Origin: Candidatus Omnitrophota bacterium
GTDB taxonomy: Bacteria; Omnitrophota; Gorgyraeia; Zapsychrales; Fredricksoniimonadaceae
DNA length: 64,000 nucleotides
Reading direction: 5' to 3'
NCBI GenBank assembly: GCA_903901225.1
Contig: CAIUQE010000006.1
Span: 15,369-79,368, forward strand
Every line of letters starts with the position of its first letter. Within the stretch, counting starts at the first letter, position 1. The notes below the pieces were generated by a model, which saw only the letters and a list, made by a program, of their open reading frames with translations, was not told the origin of the DNA and ran no database searches. Position numbers and translations under genes: made by a program. Positions 1 through 52,394 of this stretch are shown piece by piece.

Positions 1-650
1 AACCGGCCTGTCGTCGATCTTGACGCCGCCCGTTGTTTCAAGGCCTTTCGCATCCCTGCGCGACCCGTCCAGGCTTAACGCCTGATGGGCCTTGGCGGCA
101 TCCGAAGACTGGCTCGTCTCAACCCCGACCTTGACATCGGTATTGTCGATCTTTGTTGACCCTCCCAGGGTCAAAGCCCCCTCTTGCGTGCCCGCCGTTG
201 TCCGGGCTACGCTGGTCAATGCCTGGAGCGACGTTGTCTCGTTCACCTTCGTCGTTCCTCCCAGTGAAACCGTGCTCTGGGGGCCGGTACCAACCCCTCG
301 CGTCACGGCCGCCATCGCGTCGAGCGATGTCTTGTCATTGATCTGACCTTTACTGCCCAAAGCCACAGTCTGTGAAAGCTCACCTGTGCGCGCCTTCGCG
401 AGGGTGATATCCGTGCTGACAGCCAATTTGGGCGTAACATTTGCCGCAACACCCGCCCTGGTGGCCGTACCCGCGCTGCCCACGGTCTCCTCAAGTGTTC
501 CTTTGAGCTTGTTGGTCAGCTGGCGGTCAACACCGAGTGTTGTTGCCGTAGTTCCCGTCCCTGATACCTCGACCTGTTCCTTCAAGCGGATGTCCGTCTT
601 CTCGTTGAGGGCATATTGCGCCTCGGCCGCCGCCGTAGCGCTGTTGCTTT
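1..650 (-). repeat. Thr/Gly-rich ~33-aa tandem coding repeats at the C-terminal end of the giant protein (within the window)
   Basis: Translated units such as TSLDAMAAVTRGVGTGPQSTVSLGGTTKVNET / TSLQALTSVARTTAGTQEGALTLGGSTKIDNT recur consecutively. Confidence 0.5.
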
Positions 651-6600: not shown

Positions 6601-8640
6601 CGACGGCACATCCCACGCGGTATGCGACAGCGCGAGCGGGCTCGGTGTCCCATCCCAGACAAAGGTCGCCGCCCCGAATACCCAGTGCGGATAATTGCTG
6701 ATCCCGGCGGAAGACCCTCCCCCGACCAGCAACAGACCTCCGACAGCGCTGTTATCCTGCACCGACACATTATGGATATCCTGGACACCGCCCGTGGCCA
6801 GCAGCAGGAATGGCGCAGTGCCTGCCGACGAACTGACGATATCAAGCCGGTGGGTGCTGTCAATGCCGTTAAGGGTGAGCTTATCCGCCACCATATACGT
6901 GTACGGCGTGCCCGGGCCAACCCCGACCCCGAAGGTCAAAGTTTCAGGCCCCGTGGCCACGTTCTTCGTCAAGCCATAGAAGGCGATACTGCCGGTGACC
7001 GTCTGGTTGGAACCCACAGCCGGGTTTGCCAATACGACCGTCCCGTCATTGGGCGTGAACGTCCCCGCGGTACGCGTAAAATCCCCGGAAACCGTGAAAG
7101 CGTGAGAAGCATCCGGCGTTACGAAAGACCCTGCCGACAAAACAAAATCATGCAGGCTCAGATTCCCGGACTGGGCATCGACGGCCCCCCCGTTCATCGC
7201 GGTCCCATGCTCCACCGTGAGGGCCTTGCCGGAGGCCAGCAGGACGCTTCCAGCCGTGAATGTCGCGTCCGTGTATACGGTCAGATCGACCCCGATGGTG
7301 AATGTCCCGTGCGAACTCCTCGAAGAATCGTCGACGATCAGTGAATGATACCCGGCCAGCGGCGTTCCGGCGACCGTGAAATTCGTGGTGATATCAACAC
7401 CCGCGCCACTGGGCCTACCCAGATATTTGAAAACACCGGCGTCATTCAGGGCCGCGGTCACAACCGCTTCATTCCCGTCCAGATAAATGGCGCCGTCATT
7501 GACCAGGGCGGCGGACAGCGTGGCGTTATGCCCGTCGAGCGTCAGCGTGGTGCCGCTGCCGATGTTCAGCGTGCCGATAACAATATCGCCATCAAGAACA
7601 GGATCATACACAGTTCCGTCGACGATAAGGGCCGTATCCCCGTCCTCAGGCACCACGCCCAGGCTCCAGTTAAAGGCATTATCCCAGTGAATATCATAGC
7701 CACCCGTCCAGGTCTCCGTGATCGCGCCAAACTGCCAGTGCGTGTTATTGTACAGAAGATGGTCCGAATGGTCCAAAGAAGCGCGCCCCAGCAGCACCAT
7801 ACCGCCGGTGGCGTCATTGTTCCACACATTAACGTAGCGGATATCCTGGACCCCTCCCGTGGTAAGGATAAGCCCCGCGGCCGGATTGAGCACCGCCGGA
7901 ACCCCGGCGCTGTTATTCAGTGTCAACAAGTGTCCCGCGTCAAAACCGCGCAGGGTGAGGCTGTTGTCAACCCTCTGGGTCAGCCCCGGGGGGAAGACCA
8001 GTGTGCGCGCGGTCGTGGTCGGCATGACTTTCCTCAACGCGTAGAACGTTGTGCCGCCGAGGATCTGCTGGTCAGCCCCGTCAAGGATGACCCTGTTATT
8101 ACCATGAACATAAGACAAGGGCAACGCGGGAGAAACATTGTTCCACGTCCCTGTCACGTTCATGGGCATCCCGTTCGCCTCAAAGATCCCGGCGAGATTG
8201 TTAAAATCCCCCCGGATATAGATCCCGGCGTCAACGGCCGGAATGATGAGCCCCAGGCGCGCGGTCGATTCATGGGTCAAGTTATAGAACGTATCTGTCA
8301 CAAGCTTCCCGGCATAAATGGTCTGCAAGCCGGCCGCGGCGGAAAAGACCACCGTCCCTGTGCCAGAGTCATAATAACCGGAACCATAAATGGCCCAGTC
8401 ACCGTTGAGACGGATCTTCCCCGTGGTGGTTTTGATGACCCCGCGGTTGGTCACCAGACCGGGATGACCGTTGGCCGTTTCAACTTTCAAAGTACCTGTA
8501 TTAACGTTCAGGCGGGAATTGGCAGGGACAGTAACACCGGCCGCCCAGGCGGCATAACACGTCAAGAATACCGCGCACGCGGCAAAAACCGCGATCTTGA
8601 CGCTCTCGAAGAGCTTGTGCAAAGACTCACGCGCCGACAT
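1..8640 (-). CDS. Giant secreted repeat-containing surface protein (adhesin/S-layer-like), C-terminus truncated by window edge
   Basis: Manual minus-strand translation from ATG at 8640 is open for >2880 codons down to position 1; it is absent from the ORF track because no stop falls in the window. N-terminal signal peptide (MSARESLHKLFESVKIAVFAACAVFLTCYAAWAAG). Four tandem ~340-aa units ending in NNTHWQFG / NYPHWVFG / MYNNTHWVFG / TNIHWIFF with beta-helix-like NxxG/T-rich repeats. These are followed by Ig-like domains, a conserved-repeat-domain-like segment (TYTVSIECLS), a Cna-B/SdrD-B-like segment (GKVFYDWNENGRQDD), a CarbopepD-reg-like segment (GIVFDSSSNQPLKGASV), a beta-strand-rich region and Thr/Gly-rich short tandem repeats. 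Confidence 0.85.
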   Translation of the reverse strand, partial: MSARESLHKLFESVKIAVFAACAVFLTCYAAWAAGVTVPANSRLNVNTGTLKVETANGHPGLVTNRGVIKTTTGKIRLNGDWAIYGSGYYDSGTGTVVFSAAAGLQTIYAGKLVTDTFYNLTHESTARLGLIIPAVDAGIYIRGDFNNLAGIFEANGMPMNVTGTWNNVSPALPLSYVHGNNRVILDGADQQILGGTTFYALRKVMPTTTARTLVFPPGLTQRVDNSLTLRGFDAGHLLTLNNSAGVPAVLNPAAGLILTTGGVQDIRYVNVWNNDATGGMVLLGRASLDHSDHLLYNNTHWQFGAITETWTGGYDIHWDNAFNWSLGVVPEDGDTALIVDGTVYDPVLDGDIVIGTLNIGSGTTLTLDGHNATLSAALVNDGAIYLDGNEAVVTAALNDAGVFKYLGRPSGAGVDITTNFTVAGTPLAGYHSLIVDDSSRSSHGTFTIGVDLTVYTDATFTAGSVLLASGKALTVEHGTAMNGGAVDAQSGNLSLHDFVLSAGSFVTPDASHAFTVSGDFTRTAGTFTPNDGTVVLANPAVGSNQTVTGSIAFYGLTKNVATGPETLTFGVGVGPGTPYTYMVADKLTLNGIDSTHRLDIVSSSAGTAPFLLLATGGVQDIHNVSVQDNSAVGGLLLVGGGSSAGISNYPHWVFGAATFVWDGTPSPLALSHTAWDVPSNWDLGLVPRNGDSVQIPSTADKPHLTAGSGSPVLVDLGLYAVDASLYLDGHGLTVSGTFVNDGSIYLDGGEAVNIADPDIYNGTFVYHGDGTGAPFTITGGGRPVMFNNLIVHAPFTGSASAFTANVDLAIYGTLTISGSSLDATAAALDIGHDFVMTGGSFLAPGSGKTLAVAGNFTNTAGAGFDANHGTVALDATSTMGATAQALNGSTTFYKLTKTIPAGIQVHQLIFDHTAVQTITNELTLQGIAGNELFLKSDLGSNAAGISLVPGGLQHINYVDVTDSNAGGGLWLVARDSTPHAAAMYNNTHWVFGSTLFTWTGALSTDWRVPNNWDLGLVPMNAHGAVVADSVRIPGGVTNVPHFTVPHVPPDPEQYDINLLNMTLDVDARLYADGYKFDVTGAFANDGTIYLQGDEAVNIVDPDIYSGTFVYRGNGVIGSSFPLTAPNLFYNLVIENNLSGTPSTFVNAVDMTIYGNLGVAGATLNAGAKAIDLRGDFAMTGGNFTAPGSGKSFTVQGGFAHTAGSFVHNSGKVTFSGNNTVTVSGDTVFQDVASQISSGAKTIKFAQGSNQTITGSLDLAGNAANKLILRSTTDSTSGGGSTSWSLTILNAAPLAGFVDVRDSTAVFPNFPVNPATDIIATNSTDNKNGVTPTNIHWIFFTLNIVTPAPGTVVGPVPTIIGHGVPGHDVTLKDGTGTVIASAKADTNGNFRVVVGKDDASLGTVTKFALDSDPNHPVTNTITPYYGIITGDSSTFSVVVAPTAAQVPVITSPVDQQTIVTSQPVIQGNAKPGSQVFVVAKDQADLYLLSLPPEAYMGQGVVAADGTFSFALTRNLSRGSNYVSVIVDGVSSAIKTFIVNDVYGIVFDSSSNQPLKGASVLMLKADGTMAVKGTDIALTDTNPMVTGADGIYSFLTVNASYKIVITALGYSYPTILSDEKLPAGRKILLGSRGEVFITDGLIHQMDQPLDANPYLFRIEKKSNKTEARIGEVVTYTVSIECLSKTNSVIAPRFVDVIPPGFKYMNGRALLDGVPMPDPTGNRPLTFLPGDFTPGQKKIVRYQLVIGAGVAPGAYDNVATMQYPTGLIISNKTVATVKIVLDPLFDAGTVFGKVFYDWNENGRQDDPQYSYEDRQKVIEGPVPNVSLAMEDGTVVTADENGQFHIPALVPGRHLLRLDERTLPPGAYLTTDKVQVVDVTPGSIIKVNFGVNVDNAQIVGKDAEYFQKELKVDQSTTAPKPRLNVNMFNDNILLHNDTVIEQIEFRLFTNYAPFLVSWQLDVVDADTKKLVRSFKGTRSNINDPVYWDGRDAAGQYLLASHHYAFVLKVQGEHEKWDETKEQPLVLKVMTDADMADRQRQRSAQEKKDEATARTKKYHDFLLALALGDALKTRNIWVKGDTLTLKSAGSDVRQVVVLRNGQVFAEVPVPEHHGLTAQDLAAGQTEEQAIPMEVILPDGDYELEVVTAQEKGPGGWPKAAAGGGAVKQGPAEQAGAMTAGTPEVIEAAPVQTAHYRKPLKVGEDYLMFVAMGDGKVGYNMDRGHIEPVQSNDQYRRGFYDQGKIAYYLKGKIQGKYIVTSSFDTERQAKAALRTFKDNAYYPVYGDNSTLNYDAANTEGPLYLSVDWDKSQAIWGNYAVAFNDTEFANYTRTLYGGKLDYKSVATTDYGEAKTGIAVFHAEVHQRAAHNEFLATGGSLYYFKNNDIVQGTDKVKVEVRDAVTGLVKSALEMKSGVDYSIDPSNGRILFWRPLSMSVDNNQLISNNLLGGDPMYVVADYEYFVHDQLAEGTQGARVTKALGKNVVAGATYVSETQAAGKYQLGGEDVTVHLAKDSTVHAEYAETVAAAQNNFISTDGGITFSDLSGAAGSNGKAYGITQDARLFDRVGLKSYYKWIGDGFSTGGTTSQQGKSMNGMAMTFDMTPVTRLTASRDVQRLITSGNLQTAMQVGGQETTTTLVQLVHDARRLRLTEAFASTQTKGNGTATTQQSNSATAAAEAQYALNEKTDIRLKEQVEVSGTGTTATTLGVDRQLTNKLKGTLEETVGSAGTATRAGVAANVTPKLAVSTDITLAKARTGELSQTVALGSKGQINDKTSLDAMAAVTRGVGTGPQSTVSLGGTTKVNETTSLQALTSVARTTAGTQEGALTLGGSTKIDNTDVKVGVETSQSSDAAKAHQALSLDGSRRDAKGLETTGGVKIDDRPV
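4640..8535 (-). repeat. Four tandem ~1 kb coding repeats (~340 aa each) inside the giant protein gene
   Basis: Repeat units delimited by recurring ...GGVQDI(R/H)xV.V.DN.A.GG..LLV....NTHW.FG...W.G....W....NW.LG.VP..GD motifs. Approximate unit ends at nt 7725, 6702, 5691 and 4640. Confidence 0.55.
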
Positions 8641-8763
8641 CAAGTATTAATATTCATATTCAGTGTTTGATAGATATTTTAACTTATTTCATCATATTAA
8701 ATAGAAAATACGATTAAATCCATTTTTAAAATATTTTAATATTAAAAGAAAAGTGAGGATCGA
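8641..8763 (-). promoter_or_regulatory. AT-rich intergenic promoter region upstream of the giant protein gene
   Basis: About 75% AT in a ~60% GC genome (tattaatattcatattcagtgtttgatagatattttaacttatttcatcatattaaatag...). It lies immediately 5' of the ATG at 8640. Confidence 0.4.
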
Positions 8764-9952: not shown

Positions 9953-12139
9953 ATGTCGATTAGAATGTCACTTCCTATGAATTTCGCGGACACCTTATCC
10001 AAATATAATTTTCCCGAGGAATACAAACAAGCCCTTCTCGCCACGGGGATCGTGACGCTCCATCCCCCGCAGGCCGCCGCCATTGACGCTGGCGTCCTGG
10101 AAGGGAAGAACGTCGTCCTGGCCGTACCCACGGCTTCGGGAAAAACCCTGATCGCGGAACTGGCCATGCTCAAGGCCATCTTTGAAAAGAACGGCCGCTG
10201 CCTCTACATCGCGCCGCTGAAAGCTTTGGCCAGCGAAAAATACCGGGAGTTCCAGAAAAAATACGCGCCCCTGGGCATCAAGGTCGGGATCGCCATCGGC
10301 GACCTTGACTCGCCCAGCGCCTATCTGAAGAATTACCAGATCGTGATCGCGACCGCCGAAAAAGTGGACTCGCTCCTGCGCGCGCGCTCCGACTGGTTCA
10401 TCAATGACCTGGCGGTCACGGTGTTCGACGAGATCCATGTCATCAACGACCCCTCCCGCGGCCCGACGCTCGAGATCCTCGCCACCCGCATCCGCCTGCT
10501 GAACCCGGCGATGCAGGTGCTGGCTTTGTCGGCAACGGTGGCCAACGCCAAAGACATGGCGGACTGGCTCGGAGCCGGAGCTGTCGTCAGCTCATGGCGG
10601 CCCATTCCCCTGCACGAAGGCGTTTACTACAACGGCCGGCTGACCTATGAGAACGGCAACATCCGCGTGATCAAGGAAGATGCCCCGGAAGAGGTCCAGC
10701 AGCTGGTGATGGACACCCTGCGCGGCAAAGGGCAGGCGCTGGTCTTCGTCAATTCACGGCGCTCAACGCAGGCGGTGGCCCGCGAACTTTGCCGCTGGGT
10801 GGGGACACTTCTGACACCGGAAGAGCGGGAGACGCTCAAAGATGTCGCCGCGCGCGTCGCACCACCGCTGGAAAGCACCAAGGTCTGTCAAAAACTCGCG
10901 GAGGTCGTGATCCATGGCGTCGCCTTCCACCACGCGGGCCTGCGTCCCGACCAGCGGGAAGCGGTCGAGGAGAATTTCAAAAAGAATATCATCAAGGTGA
11001 TCTGCTGCACACCCACGCTGGCCGCCGGGGTCAACCTGCCGGCCCGGCGCGCGATCATCCGCGACGCCAAACGCTACGCCTCGGGCGTGGGGTCTGTTTT
11101 CATCCCGGCTTCCGAATACAAGCAATGTGCCGGCCGCGCGGGGCGTCCCCAGTACGATGACTACGGCGAAGCCGTACTGCTCGCGAAATCCCTTTCCGAC
11201 CAGGACGCTTTGTTCGAGCGCTTTATCCTCGCGCCCCCCGAGCCCGTGATGTCCCAGCTGGCCAATGAGCACCAGCTGCGCAAACACGTCCTTGCCTCGA
11301 TCGCGGGAGGCTATGTCAATGATGTCAACGGGATGTTCGAATTCCTCAGCCACACCTTCCTTGCGCATCAGCACAAGGGCGCGAATCTGGTCGAACTTGT
11401 GGGCAACATCTTTGACTTCCTGCACAAAGAACAGTTCATCGACAAGAGCGGCTTCCGTTTTTTTGCCACGCCTTTCGGCGCGCGGGTCAGCCGCCTTTAC
11501 ATCGACCCTCTCTCGGCGCTGGTCATCCGCAAAGGCCTGGCGCGGATCGCCTCAGGCGCGAATTTTTCGTCGATCGGGATATTGCACCTGATCTGCTCCT
11601 GCCCCGACAGTGAAAAACTTTCCGTGGGCAAGACCGACCTGGAAGACCTCGAGGATTTCGGCAACAAGGTCGTTGACGAACTGGCGCTGTCGCCAGAGGA
11701 TATTGAAGCCACGCAGGACCACTACACCGCGCTGGGCGTCCTCAAGACCGTCTGGCTTTTATTGCGCTGGATGGATGAAGAAAAAGAGGAAGATATCTGC
11801 GAACGCTTCAATGTGGGCCCCGGTGATGTTTTCCGCCACACGGAATCGGCCCAGTGGCTGCTCTACGCCGCCCAGTCCATTGCCGAGGTCTACCAGTTCA
11901 AGCAACTGACCCATTTTCTCAACGGGCTCCAGAGCCGCGTGCGTTACGGGATCAAGGAAGAGCTCCTGGAACTGGCGAACCTGCGGGGCATCGGCCGCAT
12001 CCGCAGCCGCATCCTTTTCAACAAGGGCTACAAAACCATCGCCGCGCTCGGGAAACTCTCCGCCGAAGACCTGGGCCACATCAAAGGCATCGGGCTGGCT
12101 TTGGCCAAAGACATCCTGAAACAAACCGCCTCACGATGA
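9953..12139 (+). CDS. Hel308/Ski2-like superfamily-2 DNA helicase with C-terminal helix-hairpin-helix domain
   Basis: 728 aa. Q-motif and Walker A (AVPTASGKT), DEIH box, SAT motif ([10 protein letters not shown]), and C-terminal HhH ([46 protein letters not shown]). The size and domain order match archaeal Hel308/Hjm. Confidence 0.8.
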
Positions 12140-15100
12140 CGTTCCCGTCCCCGCGCCAAAGCCCATAAAATTCCGAACATCACTCACCGGCTGAACATTG
12201 ATGATCAGCGGCAGGATACCCTGGACGTCCTGGTCCAGCGCCTTGACCTGCGCCGGAGAAAGGTCGAACCTGAATGCCCCCGCGTCACCCTGGACATCCA
12301 TCCCCGCGGCCTGGTCCGTGAGGTCGATACCGCCGTCGATCTCGGCTTTAGTGGACTGACTGCGGTCCTTGCCATTCCGATGCGACACCGGTTTGTTCTT
12401 AGGACGACTCTTATAATTATTCCCCTTAGCCACCCCATTACGGCCATCTGGTTTCATTACAAGAAGGGGTTTACTTAAAGCAACCGTTGTTTTCATGTTG
12501 TTTATTTTTTGATCCTCTTGTTTACCTGCAAAGCTGGCCTCGTAGAATCTGCGAGCTGTACGCCCATTTTTCTCCATGAACTTCTCAGCCTCCTGTCCCG
12601 ATAAAGGCATCAAATACACCACATCGCCATATCGCGCACCGGACACAGCGCTCGCCTCTTGCTGGGCAAGGAACAACGCATAACGTGCCTCGCCATAACG
12701 GGAAAAAAGTACCATAAAATGCCTGAATCGCGGGTCTGACTTTTCACGCATATCTTTGACCCACTTTCGCGTAGCAACCTTCGCCTGAGAGTTGCCATTT
12801 AAAAATTCTTCAAAGGGGATTTTATTTACCTTACAAAAAGACGCCATGGCATCCCTGGCACTATCCCTTTTGCCAACAGCCTTTTGAACATTTATTACAG
12901 TTATCTTTTTGACCGAAATGCGTTCTTCCGCAGAAAGCAAAGACAATTCGATTATTCTTTTATAAGTTTCATACGTTCTTGGCCCTCCCACATTCCATGA
13001 AGCTCCCCACGTGATAATTAAGATCCGTTCTGGTGACAATTGAGGATATTCTTTACATAACTGCACAAATGATGCCACCATTGATCTGCGTGACGCAAGC
13101 CGGGTCTTTATCTTGGCTGGCATGGTCACCTGTCCTCGCAACATATCAAACGAACGGGAGTAATAATCATCGGCGGGAACATAGGGCTCCCTGGCAAAGA
13201 TATCATCCATGAACGTTAGTTGAAAGATCAACTGCAACTTGGTATCATTCATCCCCATTTTAAACGCTTTCGGAACAAGCCAATGATCCTTATCTGCCAT
13301 ATATCCCATGGCTTTCGACAGGGCAACAACATGTTTATATTCACGCTCATAACCCGCCCCTCTTAAACGCTCCAGCACTGGTATCGCGATCTTGAACATC
13401 TGTTGGGCTGTTGTGGGTTGGATCTGCAAATATCCGATGGTCGACGAGCGCTCCTTGGCATCCCGAAGGGACTGATTATTCCCGAAACCACTTTCAATGC
13501 CCGACTCCCCGATCCATATCTGGAACAAAACCCTGGAGGATATGCCCGCGGCCTTGAAATTCGGCGCCAGATCATCGTAATACCGCTGGAACATTTTTGC
13601 CATGTCATCGTACGTCGCATTTGGTTTTCCCATCATTTTGATCAGGATTTCCTGGGCGGTGTATTTCTTCGTGGGACGGCCACTCCTGCCATCTTCCAAT
13701 ATCTTGAAATTCTTTGCCACATTCTGAAGCATTTCCTTAACATCCTGCCCGGTCAACTTTTTTTCCTTCTGTTCCACAACGGCAATATGTTTCGGGATCG
13801 CCAGCTTCTCAATCACAAATTTACCGCCGACCGCCATCGCCACGGCCAACGACAACCCCAACAATATCTTTCCACCTGAAGAAGATTTATTCTCAATCCC
13901 GGATTTTATGGCCCTGGCCAATGTCGTGACAAGTTTAACAGCCACCTCCTTAAAACTCCCCTGGGCATTGTCGGGTGAACCATCCTTGACATCCATCGAA
14001 GCATCCATATCTTCCGCCACAAACCCGCCGGAGAAATATTTGCGCGGGATAAGTTCCTGGGAATAAGTATCGAGCTCTTCCTTGATCAGGCTGTAAGCGC
14101 CTTTCCGGAACGCCTCAACGTACCTGTCATAGATCTGCCGGTTCTCTTCCCGCGGATGCGCGATCTCATTGCCCTGCGTCTTGTGCCGGTCGATGAACAC
14201 CTGCGCGAACACATTGGCGTCCGTCCCTTGTATTCCCGTCACAAGCCCGGCACTGGCCATCAATTTCCTCTTGAGCCAGGCCGAAAGGACGAGCGCGTGA
14301 ACGATCTGGCGAAGCATGGCAAAATTCGCGCCTTCATTGACCTCTTTCTCCAGCACCGGTAACACAATCTCGCGCAGGACCCCTTTGGCCAGGAGGACGG
14401 CACTATTGTCAGGTACACCAGCTGCGGGCACAAGCGCATTGGCCTGCGCCGCTGTAACATCCCCGGCAGGAGCCGGGGATTCCGCCATGCCCCTCTGATG
14501 GGACATGGCTACATAGTCAGATTCCAGCATGACCTTGAGCTCAACCTTATCCACGAACGCGGATATCTGCTTGCCATCGGGGCCCAGCATCTCGTGGACC
14601 AGCGAACGGCCGGGCATGATCCAGACCTTGTTGAACGTATCGACCGGGATATCGGTGGTGCCATAAGCCTCGTAGGCGCGGCGGTACACTTCCTTCCAGA
14701 ACACCTTGCCCGTCTCACCGTCAGGATGAAGGAGCGATGCGGTCAACTGCTTGAGGATATAATCCTGGGCCAGCAGGTCGCGCCCCATGGCCGTGCGCCC
14801 GAGGTCCTCCTGGACAATCCGCTGGCTTTCATACGGTGACAGGTTGACCCACAGGTCCTTGTTCGGGATCGTCAGCGACACCAGAAAATATTTGATGAGC
14901 CGCATCGAGACATCATTGAATTCCTGTTGTGCCAGCGCCGCGCGGCCTTCATCGAACAGGAAATCCATGCGCAAAGGGTCACTCGCGTCCACGCGCATCC
15001 CCCGCAGGAGGCACGGCGCGCTCGCGGGGCTGAGCGCCACCATCTGCCCCGCGGGCGGAAGGACAAGCCCCTGGGCCATGGCCGCGGGCACGACCCCGGT

Positions 15101-15148
15101 CACGATGAACGCCAGACAGACAATGGACGCAACCATACGCCTTATCAT
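12131..15148 (-). CDS. Modular envelope protein: signal-peptide-like N-terminus, conserved ~350-aa N-module, hydrophobic segment, SLT lytic-transglycosylase-like domain, conserved C-terminal GGIDL module (paralog A)
   Basis: 1005 aa. N-terminal [25 protein letters not shown]. The N-module ([30 protein letters not shown]..., [19 protein letters not shown]) is shared with the ORFs at 22371-25583 and 25764-28748. The SLT signature is [15 protein letters not shown]...[11 protein letters not shown]. The C-terminus GGIDLTDQ...[21 protein letters not shown] is shared with the two paralogs. Confidence 0.8.
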
Positions 15149-22370: not shown

Positions 22371-25300
22371 TTACTTAACCATCAGAAATCCTTGCAAATC
22401 AACCAAAGGAACACTCGAAACAAGGACCGGCTCAAGTCCAAAAAGCCTTTCCTGAAAAACCGTGACTACGGCATCATTGACCTCAAACGACACCGCGCCG
22501 CTCGCGGCATCAACATGCAGATCGATCTTTTGAAGGTCAATACCGCCATAACTCTCCGCATTATCCTGACCCTGCTCAACTTTCGTGAATGTGACCGTCG
22601 AAGATTGACTGCCAAGACTCTGTCCCCATGCTTCATCGCCATGAGCTACAAAAATCTGTTTGAGACGACTTACCCCTTGAGGAATAACCAACGCCACTTC
22701 GACCTTATTATTCACAACATTCACTGTTTTCTTGATCCTGGGATTATCGTCTGGATTTTCATCGTCCACCAGCAAACCTACCAACACTTTTTGGGCACCA
22801 TATACCGTTAATGATACCCTGATCTTTTGACCAGCTACAACAGGAATGCCCTTGTTCATATCCAGATCAAGATAGGAAGATTTCCAATTACTCCCCGAGG
22901 CTAACCCAGGATCCCTCCCACTCAACAGATCCTGATCGCTCACATTGCCGCCCTTTGTTGGCACGGCCAACAACCGATCACTCGCAGGTGTTTCTTGCAC
23001 TGTTCCTATGTCGCCTTGTGTGACAACTTGGGTGACAACAGAATATTCTTTCCCCAGAACCGCATTGTTAATAAAATCAGCTGCCCCCTTCGTATCAATA
23101 CCAATGGCGTCATAAGCAGCTCCGTAATTCTCACCCGTAAACGGATTAACGCGCAGAATAGGATAGAGGACCCAAGAACCAATCGTGCTGCCGCGTACAA
23201 CACCAGAAGGAAACGGTGTCTTCCATCCGTGACCGGTTTGAATGCCGGCTTCAGTGGCATAATAAGCGATCAACCCATCCCCATTCTGAAGTTTTCCAAA
23301 CGCGCTTTTAGCTTGTTTTAAAAGTTCTTCCGCGACGCCCTTATATAATTTAGCCGTTGACTCATCACCTGATGCCGCACAACGAATGGCAGCTTTCTGT
23401 ACTGCCATGATGACACCGCCTGTCCACTCCACGGTTCCCAGCGGATGAACACCTCCCCGTTGGGACGTCGCGAACGAAGAAAGAGGATCCGTAAAATCCA
23501 CCAGGGTTATGGTTTTCACTTCGCCACCCGGGATTGGAGCCGTCACACGCACTAGCGACTTGTTGAGCAACTTGTTGATCTCAGCCTTGAGTTGCGGTAG
23601 CGGCAACTCGTCTCCTACCCGACCCAATAAGGTCCAGGAATATGCATCCGTGGCGAAACTGCCCGGTGAATCATTGGCGCCGCGCAAAATAACGCCGGTT
23701 GAAGGGTTATAAAGATTATTGTAAAAATACGTTTTCCCCTTATCCGCCGCTTGCTTCCATTTTGGATCGCCATACGCTTTGTACAACGCGTAAAATAATG
23801 CCACGGCATCCATGTGCGGTTCCGTAATCACAAGCCCCGGACTCCGATCACCGTCCGTTACACCTCCCTCCGCATTCTGAAGCGACAAAAGAAGATCGCC
23901 CATGGCCAGCGCTAATGGCTGATATTTCTTCGCATCAACGTTCAAGGCCGACAAACCGATCCAGGCGTTGGGTCCCGGTGTCACCTGATACTCAAGCCCC
24001 GCCATACCTGTATTAATATTGACACCATTCATGAATCCCACTAATCCGTTGATGGGCTTGGCAAGGTTAGGATTAGACAAGCCGTTCATAAAGAAATCCA
24101 TAACTGTCCTGGCATAAGCGTCTTCTCCGGCATACTTGAAAGCACCCGCCTCAACGGCCAGATCATACGCATAAGCAATATTCTCCAATTGCGGCATGCC
24201 GACATGGCTCGGAATAAGCCTGGTATTCGGATCTTCCAGTGATTCCATTGCCCGGATAGCTTGCTTATTAAAATCACCCGCATTAACATCCTTCGCTACC
24301 TGCGTACAGCCCGAGGAAGTCAAAAAGACAGAAAGAACAACTAAAAATGAGATTTTCCGTACAAAACCAATACCGGCATCCAGTAACTTCTTCTGAAAAG
24401 CCCGTGTACCCGTTAATGTTGAAATGCCGGGTCCGATGGGAGAAGCATCAATAGTTTCAATGACCAATCCTGTATCAGGTGCCTTGACTGACTGCTTCCC
24501 GTCGATTTCTAGTTTGGGATGGATCGCCATACCGCCGGCAAAATACTTGCGGGGGATCGCCTCGCCAGTATACTGGTCTTTATCTTCCCGGATATAGTTG
24601 TAAACTCCCCGCTTGAAAGCTTCGACATAATTGTTATAAATATTTTCAACAGCCGCCGGATCACCATGCAACACACCTTCGATCTTGTTCTGGTCGGCAT
24701 AAGCACGTGCCAGCAGAGAATCCTTCAACCTTGTTTTGTACCATGTGGCCAGAATAAGCGCCCGATGGATCTGTCGCAGCGGTGCAAACTGGGCGCCTTC
24801 ATTCACTTCTTTCCTGATGACTGGAAGGATCGTCTGGCGCATGGTCTCGCGGGACATTTCCTGCGCTGGAGTACTGCCAGTGGATTGGCCATTCGCCTCC
24901 ATGAGCGCATGGTCACTGTCCAGCATGACATCCAATGAATCTTCCGTAATATAGACAGCACCGCCGTTCTCATAGACCTTGGCTTTCTTTGAAACGATCC
25001 ACACTTTGCTGAAAACATCCGTAGGAATATCAGTTGTACCAAAAAGATCGTACGCCCTTTCATAAACATTTTTCCAGAACACCTTACCCGTTTCGCCTTC
25101 CGGATATATCAAGGAAGATGAAACCTGCTTGAGAATATAGTCCTGCGATAATAACTCGCGGCCCATTTGCGTCCGCCCAAAATCCGGCATAACAATACGA
25201 TCATGCTCCAGAGGAGAAAGATTGACCCACATTTCATTCTCAGGGGTCGTCAGCGCCGCAAAAAAATACCGCACCAGATGATCGACCTCTTCTTGGCCAA

Positions 25301-25535
25301 CCACTTTGGACTCTCCAGGAGACAAAAGAAATTGGAAACGGAAAGGCTCTTTAGGATCGACCTTGAGACCCTGCAAACTTGCCGGGGTCATCGGCTGACT
25401 TAGTCCAACCATATTACCTGGCTCAGGCATCGGCGTCACTTGGGCCGCCCACTGGGCAAAGCCGGCCCCGGCAGTATTCAAAAGGAACGCGCACGCCACC
25501 AGCATGCTCACAATTTTCTTAAACAACTTGCCCAT
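22371..25535 (-). CDS. Modular envelope protein: signal peptide, conserved N-module, hydrophobic segment, (alpha/alpha)6 glycoside-hydrolase-like domain, beta-sandwich region, conserved C-terminal GGIDL module (paralog B)
   Basis: About 1054 aa from MGKLFKKIVSMLVACAFLLNTAGAGFA; the track ORF extends to 25583. N-module WVNLSPLEHDRIV...MGRELLSQDYILKQ...NEGAQFAPLRQ...PRKYFAGG. Central GH-like region with ITEPHMD and SFATDAYSW, reminiscent of GH8-like toroid folds (low certainty). C-terminus GGIDLQKIDL...GLEPVLVSSVPLVDLQGFLM. GC content is lower than the flanking genes. Confidence 0.78.
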   Translation of the reverse strand: MGKLFKKIVSMLVACAFLLNTAGAGFAQWAAQVTPMPEPGNMVGLSQPMTPASLQGLKVDPKEPFRFQFLLSPGESKVVGQEEVDHLVRYFFAALTTPENEMWVNLSPLEHDRIVMPDFGRTQMGRELLSQDYILKQVSSSLIYPEGETGKVFWKNVYERAYDLFGTTDIPTDVFSKVWIVSKKAKVYENGGAVYITEDSLDVMLDSDHALMEANGQSTGSTPAQEMSRETMRQTILPVIRKEVNEGAQFAPLRQIHRALILATWYKTRLKDSLLARAYADQNKIEGVLHGDPAAVENIYNNYVEAFKRGVYNYIREDKDQYTGEAIPRKYFAGGMAIHPKLEIDGKQSVKAPDTGLVIETIDASPIGPGISTLTGTRAFQKKLLDAGIGFVRKISFLVVLSVFLTSSGCTQVAKDVNAGDFNKQAIRAMESLEDPNTRLIPSHVGMPQLENIAYAYDLAVEAGAFKYAGEDAYARTVMDFFMNGLSNPNLAKPINGLVGFMNGVNINTGMAGLEYQVTPGPNAWIGLSALNVDAKKYQPLALAMGDLLLSLQNAEGGVTDGDRSPGLVITEPHMDAVALFYALYKAYGDPKWKQAADKGKTYFYNNLYNPSTGVILRGANDSPGSFATDAYSWTLLGRVGDELPLPQLKAEINKLLNKSLVRVTAPIPGGEVKTITLVDFTDPLSSFATSQRGGVHPLGTVEWTGGVIMAVQKAAIRCAASGDESTAKLYKGVAEELLKQAKSAFGKLQNGDGLIAYYATEAGIQTGHGWKTPFPSGVVRGSTIGSWVLYPILRVNPFTGENYGAAYDAIGIDTKGAADFINNAVLGKEYSVVTQVVTQGDIGTVQETPASDRLLAVPTKGGNVSDQDLLSGRDPGLASGSNWKSSYLDLDMNKGIPVVAGQKIRVSLTVYGAQKVLVGLLVDDENPDDNPRIKKTVNVVNNKVEVALVIPQGVSRLKQIFVAHGDEAWGQSLGSQSSTVTFTKVEQGQDNAESYGGIDLQKIDLHVDAASGAVSFEVNDAVVTVFQERLFGLEPVLVSSVPLVDLQGFLMVK

Positions 25536-25763
25536 AGGAACCTCTCTTTGATAGCTTGACGTCACCAGTGCAAAGTATGCCACATATACCTTACTGCACG
25601 CAACTTTTTCAAAAAAGCTGAATGAAAGCTGAATTGACTCAAAAAAATAATTCCCATGGAAAATGGCCTCGTGAACTTTTTATACCCGCCTTATAAATCT
25701 ATTGCCGCAATGATCACATCCCGTTTTTTATGAAAAATCAAATTAAGTTCTCAGCTAGCATCT

Positions 25764-28748
25764 TTATTGATTAAACCCTAATAAAACAGGATCTGCCGAC
25801 TTGATCGCCAATATCACCGGAACAAGGCCGCTGATATGAATACGATCAAAATTTTGTTGGTTTACCGGCAACGGCACCCCATCCCCATCGCGCTTAATTT
25901 GCAAATCGAGATTGGCCTGAGACATATCAATACCACCGGGAGTAAGCTTTGCCCCATCACGAACAACCGGCATCATGTTCTGCGCAAAGTCAGCCAATGT
26001 TTCTTTAGCCAGCCTTGAAATCACTTGATCCGGCTCGCGGTCTGACTTTTTCAATGACTTTACAATATAAAATTTCATTGCATCATAAACTCCGGCGAAT
26101 CTCGCTGGCATAACAACACCTGTATAAACCAACCCCTGTAAGAATAACCATTTTGTCACTTTAAAAGCCTCGCGTTCCTCCCGCACACTCTTAACTGACA
26201 AACTCATTCCCACATTAACCGCTAGCCATAAGAAATAATTAGTGACCATAGCATTAAATGAAAACGCTTCAGAAGGCTTAATTGGCAGGCTTAATGTGAG
26301 GAAGACATATGCCATGAAATTAATTGCTGTCTGTAATGCCAAGATGTTGGGTGAATGAAACTGCTTCATATAAAATCCAAACTTGTCCACAAACACTTTT
26401 AACGTCCCCCGTTCCCATCTACGGCGCTGTTTAAACAATTCTTTAACAGTATTTGGAACCGTTGTTTGAACTTTTAACCCTGTGTAATATCCAACACGAT
26501 AGTTCTCTTCCATCAACTTGACAGTGATCAACAGATCACCCGTCTCAAAATCCGGCACCATATTCCGCAATGCATGAAGCAACACATCAGCGCGAAACAT
26601 CCCTGCAGGGCCATTGATAACCCACAATTTCCCCTGCTTAGCGGAAACACGATTCCAAAATCTCGTCCCAATATATTCAGCATACTGAGCTTTTTGTAAA
26701 ATAGATGGCTTCTCAGGTAGCAATGGTTCCATCCTAAACGTCATCCCCGCAATACCCTTGTCCTGCATATACGCCGAAGCCTGAGATATCATTTCCTGCA
26801 AAGACAATCCCGGCTTAACTAGGTTAAGATATGAATCAGAGTCAAGCAAGATGACCTTTTCTGGTAAACGCCCCTCCCGACTTAACATTTCTAGCACTTC
26901 ACGAATCGCACCTTCTTTCTTCTTATTCTCTCGCAAATGCATGACCTCGATTCCATCAGAGGCAACCCATCTATCTAATATCTCTTTTGAATTATCTGTG
27001 GAGGCATCATTTACAAAGGTAATTTTATGCAAATACCCTAATGATTTTATCCTAGTTAAAATTTCATCCAGCTTATTACCTTCATTGAACACCGGCACCA
27101 CGATATGGTAATTAGCTGGTAATGCATTCGGATAATAGGGAACATCTAAATTGACTGAATCCATGCCTTCAATATATTTAGAATCTCTTTCCAACTGCTG
27201 TGCAAGGTCAACGTTTAATGACTCACCAATTTCATGAAAAAGTAATAACTTCAGCATCTCATCCTGAAAAGACCTTGCTAACTCAGAAGCATCCTTATCC
27301 TGACCAATATCTTCTGACAACGGAACCAATAATTGCGCAGGAATTTCTATTACTTGTGGCTTCTTAACAATGGCCCCCTGCAAAGGGTTCACAACTTCGA
27401 TACCAGTAACTTTCTCCAAATCAATACCAGGCTGTTCTTTAAGCAACTCACCAAACGCTGCAGCAATAGACGGTCTAATGCCTTCAGATGACAATCGATG
27501 AACCTCTCCATTATACTGAAAGGATTCCGGATATTTAACTTCCAGTGCTTTCTCAACACCATTCTTTGTTGGTAGATTTATCATCAATCGATCTGGAGTC
27601 CTTCCGTACCCAGCGTCAACCATTACAACGGAAACATTATCCGCCTTCGCCATATCATTCTTTCCATCTACCGGAATACGATCAATTACACTCAATATCG
27701 ATGCATCACTTCCTAAAGCCTTGCCAACCCCAATCATACCGCCCGCGAAATACTTGCGTGGAATAGTCTCTTGCGTGTATCGGTCAACATCATCTTTAAT
27801 CATGTTGAAAACACCCATTTTAAATGCCTTAACATATTCCTCATATATGCGCTGATTATTTTTTGGATCCTGATCCACTCCCTTGACCTTACTCTTATCT
27901 GCATACAATTTACCCAGGATCGATTCTTTAAGAGCACGTTTATACCATGTTGCCAGAAGCATGCCACTGTAGACCTGACGCAATGGGGCAAAGTTACGGC
28001 CAGTATTCACTTCCTTTTCAATCTCTGGAATAATCACCCCGCGCATAACATCGTTAAAAATCTTTGCTGTCTCATTATCAGCCTGCGGGCTATCGTGCGT
28101 CTCATTGGCCTTCATTGCCTTATAATCACTTTCAAGCATAACCTTTAGATGATTCTCAATCACAAAAGCCTTGTTCCCTTTTTCATAGATCACAGCTCTA
28201 TCTGGCGTGATCCATACTTTATTGAACGTATCAGTCGGAATATCGGTTGTGCCAAATTTCTCATACGCTTTTGCATATACATCATCCCAAAACTTCCTGC
28301 CTAGATCCGTATCAGGATTACTTAGCGAAGCCGAAATCTGTTTAAGTAAATAATCCTGCGCCAAAAGATCGCGACCCATTTCAGTAAGGCCAAAGTTATC
28401 CGGCAATATACGATCATGTTCATACGGCGAAAGGTTCACCCACTGATCAGTGTCCGGCACCGCTAGTGCGGCCAGAAAATATTTGATAAGTTTTGAATAT
28501 TCTTCCTGTTTTTTATTCTCAGATAACAGATCATCACCACGATAAATAATAAAATCGAACTTGAAAGGATCCCCTGGATTAATAACCATGCCCTTCAAAT
28601 AGGCAGGAGTGAATAAAGAAGTCAACCCTACTGCAACCCCTGGCTGTGGCATCCACGGCATCTCAGAAGCCAGAGCTACAGGAACTCCTGGAAATAGTAA
28701 GGTTGGCAATAAAAGCACACTTGCTATCAATCGTTTTATTGCTTTCAT
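25764..28748 (-). CDS. Modular protein: signal-peptide-like N-terminus, conserved N-module, processive family-2 glycosyltransferase (cellulose-synthase/PgaC-like), C-terminal TM helices, conserved C-terminal GGIDM module (paralog C)
   Basis: 994 aa. N-terminal MKAIKRLIASVLLLPTLLFPGVPVALA, then [13 protein letters not shown]...[14 protein letters not shown]...TGRNFAPLRQ...PRKYFAGG. GT2-A region HIVVPVFNEGNK...FVNDASTDNS...LLDSDSY...NGPAGMFR...KQRRRWERG (the Q(Q/R)xRW motif), followed by three or more transmembrane helices. C-terminus GGIDMSQANL...GLVPVILAIKSADPVLLGF. Lowest GC in the window. Confidence 0.82.
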   Translation of the reverse strand: MKAIKRLIASVLLLPTLLFPGVPVALASEMPWMPQPGVAVGLTSLFTPAYLKGMVINPGDPFKFDFIIYRGDDLLSENKKQEEYSKLIKYFLAALAVPDTDQWVNLSPYEHDRILPDNFGLTEMGRDLLAQDYLLKQISASLSNPDTDLGRKFWDDVYAKAYEKFGTTDIPTDTFNKVWITPDRAVIYEKGNKAFVIENHLKVMLESDYKAMKANETHDSPQADNETAKIFNDVMRGVIIPEIEKEVNTGRNFAPLRQVYSGMLLATWYKRALKESILGKLYADKSKVKGVDQDPKNNQRIYEEYVKAFKMGVFNMIKDDVDRYTQETIPRKYFAGGMIGVGKALGSDASILSVIDRIPVDGKNDMAKADNVSVVMVDAGYGRTPDRLMINLPTKNGVEKALEVKYPESFQYNGEVHRLSSEGIRPSIAAAFGELLKEQPGIDLEKVTGIEVVNPLQGAIVKKPQVIEIPAQLLVPLSEDIGQDKDASELARSFQDEMLKLLLFHEIGESLNVDLAQQLERDSKYIEGMDSVNLDVPYYPNALPANYHIVVPVFNEGNKLDEILTRIKSLGYLHKITFVNDASTDNSKEILDRWVASDGIEVMHLRENKKKEGAIREVLEMLSREGRLPEKVILLDSDSYLNLVKPGLSLQEMISQASAYMQDKGIAGMTFRMEPLLPEKPSILQKAQYAEYIGTRFWNRVSAKQGKLWVINGPAGMFRADVLLHALRNMVPDFETGDLLITVKLMEENYRVGYYTGLKVQTTVPNTVKELFKQRRRWERGTLKVFVDKFGFYMKQFHSPNILALQTAINFMAYVFLTLSLPIKPSEAFSFNAMVTNYFLWLAVNVGMSLSVKSVREEREAFKVTKWLFLQGLVYTGVVMPARFAGVYDAMKFYIVKSLKKSDREPDQVISRLAKETLADFAQNMMPVVRDGAKLTPGGIDMSQANLDLQIKRDGDGVPLPVNQQNFDRIHISGLVPVILAIKSADPVLLGFNQ

Positions 28749-47483: not shown

Positions 47484-48299
47484 TTGCCCATGTACAAACA
47501 GTTCTACGGCTTCAAAGAAAACGCGTTCAATATCACCTCGGACCCCGCCTTCTATTTTGAGAGCGACCAGCACAAGGAAGCTTACGCGCACCTCCTTTAC
47601 GGCATCAGGAACCGCAAAGGCATCATCTCCATGACAGGCGAGGTCGGGACTGGAAAGACCACCCTTTGCCGCATCCTCCTGAACCAGATCGACGAAAAGA
47701 TAAAGACCGCCTTCATCCTCAACCCCAGCTTTTCGCAGATCCAGCTCCTGCAGCTCATCACCAAGGACCTGGGGATACCCCTGCCGGCCAAGACGAACAA
47801 CAAGCTCGAGCTTATCAACACCCTGAACCAGTTCCTCATCGATGAAACATCCAAAGGGCATAACGTGGCCGTCATCATCGACGAGGCGCAAAACCTCAAT
47901 ATCCACCAGCTTGAACAGATCCGCCTGCTCTCCAACCTCGAGACCGAGAAGGACAAGCTCCTGCAGATCATTCTCGTCGGCCAACCGGAACTTCTTGATA
48001 AATTGAAGAAACCCTCCCTGCGCCAACTCAATTCGCGCGTGAGCGTGCGCTACCATATCCAGCCGCTCGCGCGGGACGAGATAAAAAAATACATCAACCA
48101 CCGGCTTGCCATCGCCGGAGCGCCGCCCGTCCTGAAATTCACCGACGCGGCCGTTAACGATATCTTCACATTCTCAAAAGGGACCCCGCGCCTCATCAAC
48201 ATCCTGTGCGAGCACGCGCTTTTGGCGGGATTCGTGAATGAGACCATGACCATCGACGACGATATCATCAAAAGCGCGGCCAAAGAGGCTTTGGGCTGA
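47484..48299 (+). CDS. ExeA/GspA/MshM-like AAA ATPase
   Basis: 271 aa. Walker A GEVGTGKTT, Walker B VIIDEAQNL. Typical ExeA-family N-terminus (FYGFKENAFNITSDPAFYF). Confidence 0.8.
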   Translation: MPMYKQFYGFKENAFNITSDPAFYFESDQHKEAYAHLLYGIRNRKGIISMTGEVGTGKTTLCRILLNQIDEKIKTAFILNPSFSQIQLLQLITKDLGIPLPAKTNNKLELINTLNQFLIDETSKGHNVAVIIDEAQNLNIHQLEQIRLLSNLETEKDKLLQIILVGQPELLDKLKKPSLRQLNSRVSVRYHIQPLARDEIKKYINHRLAIAGAPPVLKFTDAAVNDIFTFSKGTPRLINILCEHALLAGFVNETMTIDDDIIKSAAKEALG

Positions 48300-51767: not shown

Positions 51768-52394
51768 TCACAATCTCCTGACTAAAGAATCACGATAAAG
51801 ACTTTTTAACTGCCTTCTGGTATCCGAAGAATCTTCTTTCCTTTGAAAATTCCCGACACACACAATGGTATAACTCCCCTTGGGAAGAACATACACATCC
51901 TTGAACCCTTTTTGCTTGAGCAGGTCCGCCGCGCGCTGGGCTGGCCCCTCAAACTTGTAAGACGCGACCTGCACGGTATAAGCGCCGCTTCCCGCCACCG
52001 CTGTCCCGGCCGCCGGAACAATCCCCTCATCAGCCGCGGGCTTTCCCTTGACCATGGTCTGGGACGAAAGCGCGGGGGCTTTCAATTTCTGGTTATCCGC
52101 CGGCGAAGCTTTCACGTCGTCTTTAACAGCGCCCCTGTCGTTCTTCACGACCGAAACATTCACGCTGGCCGTCTCGGACTGATCCGGCACGCTCAAAGCG
52201 ATCTTCTTCCCGCGCTCGATCCCCATCGCGAAAGAAAAGATGACCATCATTATAGCCACGATCGATAAAATTACAAGATTTTCCAAAGAAAGGCTGATCT
52301 GCGCCGCCATGTAACGGGGCTGAAGATTCTCACCTTCTTTTCCCGAAGCCTGCGAGAGAAAATCGATCTGTCTTTCTTTATAATTAATATTCAT
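51768..52394 (-). CDS. Membrane-anchored SPOR-domain protein (septal peptidoglycan binding)
   Basis: TM helix, then a C-terminal SPOR domain (YTVQVASYKFEGPAQRAADLLKQKGFKDVYVL...SYTIVCVGNF). Confidence 0.75.
   Translation of the reverse strand: MNINYKERQIDFLSQASGKEGENLQPRYMAAQISLSLENLVILSIVAIMMVIFSFAMGIERGKKIALSVPDQSETASVNVSVVKNDRGAVKDDVKASPADNQKLKAPALSSQTMVKGKPAADEGIVPAAGTAVAGSGAYTVQVASYKFEGPAQRAADLLKQKGFKDVYVLPKGSYTIVCVGNFQRKEDSSDTRRQLKSLYRDSLVRRL

Follow-up and report, generated by a model that had tools for sequence, protein, structure and literature searches.

Our analysis of a 64,000-nucleotide stretch of DNA from Candidatus Omnitrophota (contig CAIUQE010000006.1, positions 15,369 to 79,368; hereafter the window, meaning the whole stretch at its full length) concerns three paralogous genes, A, B and C, and above all paralog C, in which some 519 residues devoid of any membrane span lie between a signal-like N-terminus and a processive membrane synthase of glycosyltransferase family 2 (GT2). 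The conflict in C is one instance of a conflict that runs through an entire protein family: the N-terminus of its members says "exported", everything that follows a conserved N-terminal module (N-module) says "cytoplasmic face", and no single ordinary topology fits all of the data. The reading that we favour, which we regard as quite possible though short of probable, is that of a family of modular effectors launched through Sec, with cargos that would act in another cell, a prey or a host. Paralog C is laid out as follows, where P and L numbers are our handles for relatives and their loci, arrows mark the predicted signal cleavage and pLDDT is the predicted local distance difference test of the AlphaFold2 model:

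25764..28748, minus strand: whole open reading frame (ORF) of paralog C, 994 aa, with signal, N-module, hinge, linker domain, GT2 synthase, transmembrane (TM) helices and GGID tail.
28668..28748, minus strand: aa 1-27, predicted signal peptide of the Sec/signal peptidase I type, MKAIKRLIASVLLLPTLLFPGVPVALA↓SE, from sequence features, hydropathy, the ribosome-binding site and family-wide conservation of the n-, h- and c-regions.
27735..28661, minus strand: aa 30-338, N-module closing in the invariant PRKYFAGG (aa 330-337), from family alignments and a confident alpha/beta AlphaFold2 model over aa 40-336.
27591..27734, minus strand: aa 339-386, disordered hinge leading from the N-module to the cargo, with a pLDDT of about 30 (338-383) and unalignable across the family.
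27159..27590, minus strand: aa 387-530, folded 'linker domain', with a pLDDT of about 90 and an alignment with P0122, P0263, P0123, P0124, P0147, P0179 and P0266.
26349..27113, minus strand: aa 546-800, GT2 catalytic domain, with DSD at 26835-26843, QRRRW at 26415-26429 and a pLDDT of about 97.
26088..26345, minus strand: aa 802-887, three hydrophobic helices (802-820, 831-850, 861-887) that form the membrane part of the synthase, from hydropathy and AlphaFold2.
25767..25940, minus strand: aa 937-994, conserved C-terminal tail beginning with the invariant GGID, from alignments and a tail hidden Markov model (HMM).

The N-terminus of C, which reads MKAIKRLIASVLLLPTLLFPGVPVALA↓SE, is a canonical predicted signal of the Sec type; the first-pass annotation had already called it Sec-signal-peptide-like. 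Its n-region carries three positive residues (K2, K5 and R6), its h-region is short and proline-rich, and its c-region has small residues at positions -3 and -1 (LIASVLLLPTLLFPGVPV-ALA↓SE, with the cleavage motif A-L-A↓S). For C and its relatives alike the call was made with our own counts of charge, core and cleavage motif rather than with a trained predictor. The same features recur throughout the family: among 160 relatives with complete N-termini, the mean charge of the n-region is +2.5 (152 of the 160 have +1 or more), the median uncharged stretch is 15 aa, the apolar core spans 12 residues and is usually followed by PP or P, and the cleavage site is of the small-x-small type, mostly A↓Q (e.g., ...PPQGFA↓Q or ...SPAYA↓Q). 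A positive n-region, a short core and a small-x-small site are typical of cleaved Sec signals, and here they recur in more than 1000 proteins. A Shine-Dalgarno sequence, GAGGA, lies 3 nt 5' of the ATG at 28748, and this ribosome-binding site, together with the retention of the signal in almost all relatives, led us to accept the start codon and to discard the idea that it had been mis-called. An assembly or frameshift chimera could be discarded as well, since the same architecture occurs in independent genomes; two orthologs, P0122 and P0263, have an identical build at 42-44% identity. An identical gene has two public calls, one of which gives the same 994 aa while the other (P0121) starts at Met33 and thereby loses the signal (28650..28748, minus strand), and many database relatives begin inside the signal or just past it (e.g., MPPHGFAQ... 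or MPQPG...). Because of such truncated gene calls, signal-peptide statistics drawn from public calls are biased.

Between this signal and the synthase nothing resembles a membrane span. The Kyte-Doolittle maximum over 19 aa in the region from aa 60 to 800 is 1.24 (at 337-355) and the segment just past the signal (38-56) reaches 1.42, where TM-like segments elsewhere have values of at least 1.6. The Wimley-White scale singles out just four windows as clearly favourable: 7-25, 805-823, 828-846 and 867-885. The AlphaFold2 model of C (mean pLDDT 80) shows, in order, a signal helix, the N-module, the hinge, the linker domain, the GT2 domain, helices that extend over 802-924 and a poorly modelled tail, and it contains no hydrophobic helix between the signal and aa 800. 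The first-pass annotation had described C as lacking a hydrophobic span ahead of the GT2 domain, and the TM helix that we looked for between N-module and GT2 was indeed absent on both hydropathy scales, in the model and in the orthologs P0122 and P0263.

That C carries a processive GT2 synthase, also claimed at first pass, is supported by profiles, motifs and structure. Pfam families PF00535, PF13641 and PF13632 match aa 547-839, and C has the catalytic motifs (DSD at 636, QRRRW at 774), which are intact in its orthologs too. The NCBIfam PgaC/IcaA-like profile (TIGR03937) scores 85.3 bits over its positions 48-296 only, far below the equivalog cut-off of 422. Using Foldseek, the GT2 part of the model matched the Chlorella-virus hyaluronan synthase 7sp8 (E 6e-13), Chs1 and Chs2, and, at about 1e-7, BcsA (4hg6/5ej1), the enzyme with which a comparison had been proposed. 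The nearest relatives of aa 546-900 are free-standing synthases of about 375 aa, from Omnitrophota (58% identity) as well as other phyla, which open directly at the catalytic domain (M..FQIVVPVYNE) and close with two to four hydrophobic helices. We found no N-terminal TM helix in about 85 of these free-standing homologs, which indicates that the N-terminus of the GT2 domain is natively cytoplasmic and that C is a fusion, and which makes it unlikely that the N-terminal helix of C is the first TM helix of the synthase. As its cargo, C carries an entire membrane GT2 synthase of the hyaluronan or poly-N-acetylglucosamine (PNAG) synthase type that was formerly free-standing. Like other processive GT2 synthases (hyaluronan synthase, chitin synthase, BcsA, PgaC/IcaA, NodC), it combines a GT-A fold and the DxD and QxxRW motifs with membrane helices that follow them. 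Unlike them, C and its homologs of about 375 aa have no TM helix ahead of the catalytic domain, and C lacks a PilZ domain, falls short of the PgaC equivalog cut-off, and is extended in front by a signal peptide, the N-module (310 aa) and the linker domain (145 aa) and behind by a conserved tail.

The linker domain, for which a search of PDB sequences gave no match, is present in nearly all the signal-fronted GT2 relatives of our aligned set and absent from the free-standing synthases; in P0265, the apparent exception, only about 35-40 aa separate the signal from GT2. Signal-fronted GT2 forms include C itself, the orthologs P0122 and P0263, signal-only proteins such as P0147, and four proteins with an additional domain (P0123, P0124, P0125 and L035). 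The TM helices of GT2 are less hydrophobic behind a signal (median summed hydropathy about 4.5, n=10) than in free-standing synthases (5.32, n=86; Mann-Whitney U test, p = 1e-5, with no phylogenetic correction). Secreted membrane effectors show a lowered TM hydropathy of this kind.

Paralog C belongs to a family whose members share one build: a cleavable Sec signal, an N-module of about 310 aa, the invariant PRKYF(S/A)GG, a disordered hinge, an exchangeable cargo and a GGID tail of about 60 aa. Signal, N-module and C-terminal tail are common to A, B and C in alignments. A search with the N-module alone retrieved at least 1312 clusters at 90% identity, whose named source organisms are nearly always Candidatus Omnitrophota. 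The search of the full library with C returned 9738 matches; among the best 150, nearly every sequence is matched over the N-module and over a second region as well, and in these 150 the signal, the end of the module at about aa 330-350 and a GGID motif 55-70 residues before the C-terminus recur almost without exception. In a scan of species-representative genomes, at least 568 loci were found in metagenome-assembled genomes of Omnitrophota type, several per genome. Family proteins range in length from 600 to 2300 aa. HMMs for the N-module and the tail show strict pairing in essentially every complete ORF, and the possibility that the two are independent modules was rejected, as almost all 'tail-only' or 'module-only' ORFs are cut by locus ends. 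Invariant GG motifs stand at both junctions of the cargo, within PRKYF(S/A)GG and GGID. A tail-like motif repeat suspected in the hinge was not significant.

The N-module (AlphaFold2 pLDDT 84, predicted template modelling score, pTM, 0.75) has no match in Pfam, NCBIfam, PHROG, PADLOC or PDB sequences, and no significant Foldseek fold in PDB or BFVD. The tail matches nothing in PHROG or PADLOC, nor in Pfam or NCBIfam at E values up to 0.1, and, compared with known sorting signals (the C-terminal domain of type IX secretion, PEP-CTERM, GlyGly-CTERM, LPXTG, and type I secretion/RTX), it has neither a full TM segment nor a basic end. No recurrent neighbour gene was found in 80 family loci; copies are scattered among housekeeping genes, and tandem copies are frequent. 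Our literature search found no published description of an N-module/GGID family, and we conclude that the family is undescribed and almost confined to Omnitrophota. The strand, the GGID tail and this family context were all absent from the first-pass annotation.

The cargos, surveyed with Pfam on about 140 members, are unrelated to one another and joined at the fixed PRKYF(S/A)GG junction. Those without a signal of their own comprise signalling and phosphatase domains (Response_reg in four members, cNMP_binding in two, PP2C, LMW-PTP, metallophosphatase), enzymes (methyltransferase, HAD, 2-hydroxyacid dehydrogenase, caspase-like C14, GT2), and WD40, HEAT, TPR and a single AvrB_AvrC domain (3e-15). 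Downstream of the C ortholog P0263, with two small genes in between, lies a receiver-domain member of 1803 aa (L081:12317-17728). The LysM, GH26 and (alpha/alpha)6-like cargos, which are of extracytoplasmic type, have their own twin-arginine (Tat), lipoprotein or Sec signal just past the N-module. Hydrophobic segments between module and tail are missing from 89 of the 138 complete members; in another 14 a single one follows shortly behind the module, and many of these lone segments are canonical N-in export signals. The internal Tat motifs of relatives include TRRDFLKG, SRRNFIKG, NRRSFL and SRRRFLG (Pfam TAT_signal 3.6e-6), with P0123 (TRRDFLKGAAVAGALAL), L035 (SRRNFIKGLLAAGAML), P0125 (NRRSFLTMLGIG) and P0071 (SRRRFLGML) as examples; canonical internal lipoboxes are found in P0073 (IAAGC), P0008 (FVTGC) and P0166 (TAAGC), and internal Sec-type sites read AKA↓SD and ARA↓ED. 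Over 34 non-redundant post-module segments, K+R amounts to 3.2 upstream versus 2.1 downstream, and 22 segments are N-in versus 9 N-out (p = 0.011). The opposite bias, positive downstream as in N-out/C-in anchors, was observed in nine of the 34 (L026, L038, P0250, P0186 and P0163 among others); the family may lack a single topology.

Internal Tat signals are known from other proteins, for example actinobacterial Rieske proteins, where the topology is set by Sec-inserted TM helices ahead of the Tat signal. The family members P0123, P0124, P0125, L035, P0071 and P0247 likewise have their twin-arginine signal hundreds of residues into the chain, but what precedes it there is a signal peptide and a soluble module, with no TM helix in between. 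The first four of these proteins continue with an (alpha/alpha)6-like domain, the linker domain and GT2, and no hydrophobic span separates the (alpha/alpha)6-like domain from GT2. They fit none of the models considered here, the one that we favour included.

The other two paralogs of the window bear on the same question:

12131..15148, minus strand: paralog A, with signal (15074-15148), N-module (14024-15067), hydrophobic segment (13814-13870) and tail (12134-12334).
22371..25535, minus strand: paralog B, starting MGKLF at 25535, with signal (25452-25535), N-module (24531-25439), internal signal (24306-24365) and tail (22374-22547).

Hydropathy scans agree with the first-pass annotation that A and B have a single mid-protein hydrophobic segment each. 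Its domain labels fared less well. The 'SLT' label of A finds no support, as its cargo has no sequence match in Pfam, NCBIfam or PDB and no homolog among the collected family sequences. The 'GH' label of B points in a plausible direction without being confirmed: there is weak profile support (E 1e-3 to 0.05) for an (alpha/alpha)6-barrel fold like that of glycosidases or epimerases. The internal segment of B, FVRKISFLVVLSVFLTSSGC (24306-24365), is lipoprotein-like, with a non-canonical S-S-G at lipobox positions -3 to -1. The homolog search with the B cargo gave one match, and further relatives were gathered from the genomic loci of family members; in six of six homologs the domain is preceded by a signal, which is of the Tat type in four, lipoprotein-like in B and Sec-like in L072. 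That the signal is kept while its type changes argues for selection and not decay. B adjoins C directly downstream (22371..28748, minus strand), and in other genomes a single N-module protein holds both a B-type cargo and a C-type GT2 (P0123, P0124, P0125 and L035:1365-5876). Adjacency here and fusion elsewhere, a Rosetta-stone link, suggest a pair made of a synthase and a glycan-processing enzyme, and judging from these sequences B and C probably work together in these roles.

If the family consists of delivered effectors, as we tentatively favour, the signal would be genuine and the protein would leave the cytoplasm of the producer; the two conserved ends, N-module and tail, would serve sorting and delivery; the cargo would work on the cytoplasmic face of a prey or host cell of these predatory or parasitic nanobacteria; and its topogenic features, such as the TM helices of C or the Tat, lipoprotein and Sec signals of its relatives, would act in the recipient cell. 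We infer export of the whole protein, transfer into another cell and a delivery role for N-module and tail from several lines of evidence. The signal is canonical and conserved, with a start codon backed by the ribosome-binding site; the family is very large and nearly restricted to Omnitrophota; its cargos are of kinds typical of effectors (AvrB_AvrC, PP2C, LMW-PTP, caspase-like C14, methyltransferase, HAD, WD40, HEAT, TPR, GT2); the TM helices of GT2 are less hydrophobic behind a signal, a difference not corrected for phylogeny; and copies are scattered among housekeeping genes with no conserved neighbour gene. Omnitrophota have been proposed to be predators or parasites (PMC10066038), which we also count in its favour, as we do the giant proteins of the same phylum ('archaeovorins'), which combine signal peptides with enzymes and domains of cytoplasmic type, namely HEAT, HAD, methyltransferase, response-regulator receiver and glycosyltransferase (10.1101/2023.11.21.568195; 10.64898/2026.06.07.730766). 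The N-module family differs from them in its length of 600-2300 aa, in having one cargo per protein and in its two fixed ends, and neither the N-module nor the GGID tail is described in the searched passages of the two preprints.

The paired 'bookend' ends, with invariant GG motifs at both cargo junctions, also count in its favour, as this build resembles that of delivered modular toxins. With MARTX, CdiA and other polymorphic toxins, and oomycete Crinkler and RxLR effectors, the family shares a signal followed by a conserved N-terminal module with an invariant junction and a highly variable cargo of intracellular type; a conserved C-terminal end is a likeness to MARTX in particular; and a massive, lineage-specific expansion in organisms that live on other cells is a further common trait. 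However, the N-module and tail have no sequence or fold similarity to delivery domains, no match to trafficking, pre-toxin or toxin domains was found, and the family genes have no adjacent immunity genes or dedicated transporters. The cargos also differ from those of delivered toxins in that they include receiver domains and whole membrane enzymes, and some keep their own Tat or lipoprotein signals.

Several observations weigh against delivery. No delivery machinery could be linked to the family and no sign of the proteins leaving the cell was found. The receiver domains (four members) and cNMP-binding domains (two members) better suit an ordinary cytoplasmic life. Internal Tat signals are kept among proteins that are about 40% identical, and their simplest explanation is use in the cytoplasm of the producer. 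Some cargo segments have Kyte-Doolittle values above 2.2 and would be expected to arrest in the membrane of the producer, and the stability of the C orthologs (42-44% identity) is more that of a housekeeping exopolysaccharide synthase than that of a fast-evolving effector.

A bolder version of the same idea, which we consider unlikely, is that a new protein-delivery system of Omnitrophota has the N-module and the GGID tail as its ends, with a launch through Sec followed by passage into prey. Cargos with Tat, lipoprotein or Sec signals would then be re-exported by the machinery of the prey and would attack its envelope from within, and the cargo of C would insert in the prey membrane and spin the nucleotide sugars of the prey out as polymer. 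The alternative to this is a new topogenic rule, by which a canonical signal peptide would stand ahead of a domain that stays on, or returns to, the cytoplasmic side.

The main rival, rather unlikely in our estimate, holds that the N-module is cytoplasmic in all members, that the N-terminal segment is an anchor or has some other role than export, that module and tail form a handle for docking, assembly or regulation, and that cargos follow their own signals. It explains the logic of the cargos best, the receiver domains included: the native N-terminus of the GT2 lineage is cytoplasmic, cargos without a signal are intracellular (Response_reg in four members, cNMP_binding in two, PP2C, and enzymes that depend on NAD or S-adenosylmethionine, SAM), LysM, GH26 and (alpha/alpha)6 cargos bring their own N-in signal directly past the N-module, the signal ahead of the B cargo persists in all six homologs despite its change of type, and the charge bias of the post-module segments (22 N-in versus 9 N-out, p = 0.011) points the same way. 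To this extent the cytoplasmic topology put forward in the first-pass annotation holds, in that the chain past the N-module behaves as if it started on the cytoplasmic face, but the uncleaved N-terminal anchor on which it was built fits poorly. More than 1000 relatives have a textbook cleavable signal with prolines and a small-x-small site, the core of 12-15 residues is too short to anchor, and the positive n-region predicts, by the positive-inside rule, an N-in/C-out orientation that is the reverse of what the model needs. The nine of 34 post-module segments with the opposite charge bias also speak against it, and in A and B the strictly paired module and tail would be split between compartments.

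Signal and cargo could instead be uncoupled at the hinge, with only the N-module exported and the chain cut after PRKYF(S/A)GG, perhaps again at GGID, so that the cargo stays behind or follows its own signals. Such a cut would reconcile a canonical signal with cytoplasm-type cargos and conserved internal signals; the invariant GG motifs lie exactly at both borders of the cargo, the hinge is long and disordered, and peptidase domains of the C39 double-glycine type are reported in Omnitrophota giant proteins (10.1101/2023.11.21.568195). We nevertheless find it doubtful: nothing points to cleavage, no protease could be tied to the family, the junction differs from the classical double-glycine leader, the timing relative to Sec translocation is problematic, and it is hard to see why so many proteins of unrelated kinds would carry an exported domain only to lose it later.

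Ordinary Sec export with no delivery, whereby the whole soluble part, GT2 included, would be periplasmic or at the surface, the internal signals would be relics and the cytoplasm-type domains would be repurposed or inert, is in our view very improbable. It would agree with the canonical signal, with the 89 of 138 complete members that have no hydrophobic segment between N-module and tail, and with topology predictions in the two giant-protein preprints, which place some of the cytoplasm-type enzyme content outside the cytoplasm (10.1101/2023.11.21.568195; 10.64898/2026.06.07.730766). Receiver domains and NAD- or SAM-dependent domains, however, make no sense outside the cytoplasm. GT2 enzymes require nucleotide sugars, and neither C nor its orthologs have lost the catalytic motifs. 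Twin-arginine motifs, finally, are conserved among diverged proteins, which shows that they are not decaying relics.

The least credible reading is a hidden crossing, in which the signal would export the first two thirds of the N-module and a helix within it would return the chain, leaving hinge and cargo in the cytoplasm:

about 27927..27992, minus strand: aa 253-274 of C, conserved helix NFAPLRQVYSGMLLATWYKRAL (NFAPLRQ..LLATWYKR), from the Wimley-White scale and alignment.

Within the module, this helix alone is Wimley-White-favourable in each of the three paralogs (A -5.5, B -2.8, C -1.9), its flanks, acidic upstream and KR..K-rich downstream, would suit an out-to-in span under the positive-inside rule, and the part of the module past it is modelled at lower confidence (pLDDT 38-85), but we hold a crossing there to be hardly credible, given low Kyte-Doolittle values (1.0-1.24), only about 11 apolar residues, the presence of Arg and Gln as invariant residues, an insertion energy that a rough hand estimate with Hessa-scale values puts as strongly unfavourable, conservation of nearly all faces as in a buried core helix and not a lipid-facing span, and a module that AlphaFold2 models as one compact domain (pTM 0.75). 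In paralog A, the equivalent helix outscores the mid-protein segment of A itself on the Wimley-White scale.

Elsewhere in the window, no secretion machinery was found within the 64 kb. The start of the window cuts a giant ORF (1..8643, minus strand; more than 2881 aa), which has a signal-like N-terminus, MMSARESLHKLFESVKIAVFAACAVFLTCYAAWAA; it has no N-module, its first 1000 aa have no Pfam match, and it probably belongs to the giant proteins of the phylum. Other genes encode a LysM and M23 peptidase protein with a lipoprotein-like N-terminus (57257..57949, minus strand), a SPOR-domain protein (51768..52394, minus strand) and an AAA_22 ATPase (47484..48299, plus strand); their surroundings are otherwise of housekeeping type, with recO, phoH, hisS, dnaE, guaA, guaB, uvrB, efp and a gene for a class II tRNA synthetase (D/K/N type).

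Omnitrophota are widespread, uncultured nanobacteria that are thought to be predators or parasites, and the family described here may occupy a noticeable share of their small genomes while carrying no annotation. If its members are delivered effectors, the N-module and the tail would provide a sequence handle with which to list the effectors of the phylum and to find their delivery route. If, on the other hand, the N-module is cytoplasmic, thousands of textbook signal peptides would act against the call of the predictors, and the topology-based reading of Omnitrophota proteomes would be affected, including that of their 'secreted' giant proteins.

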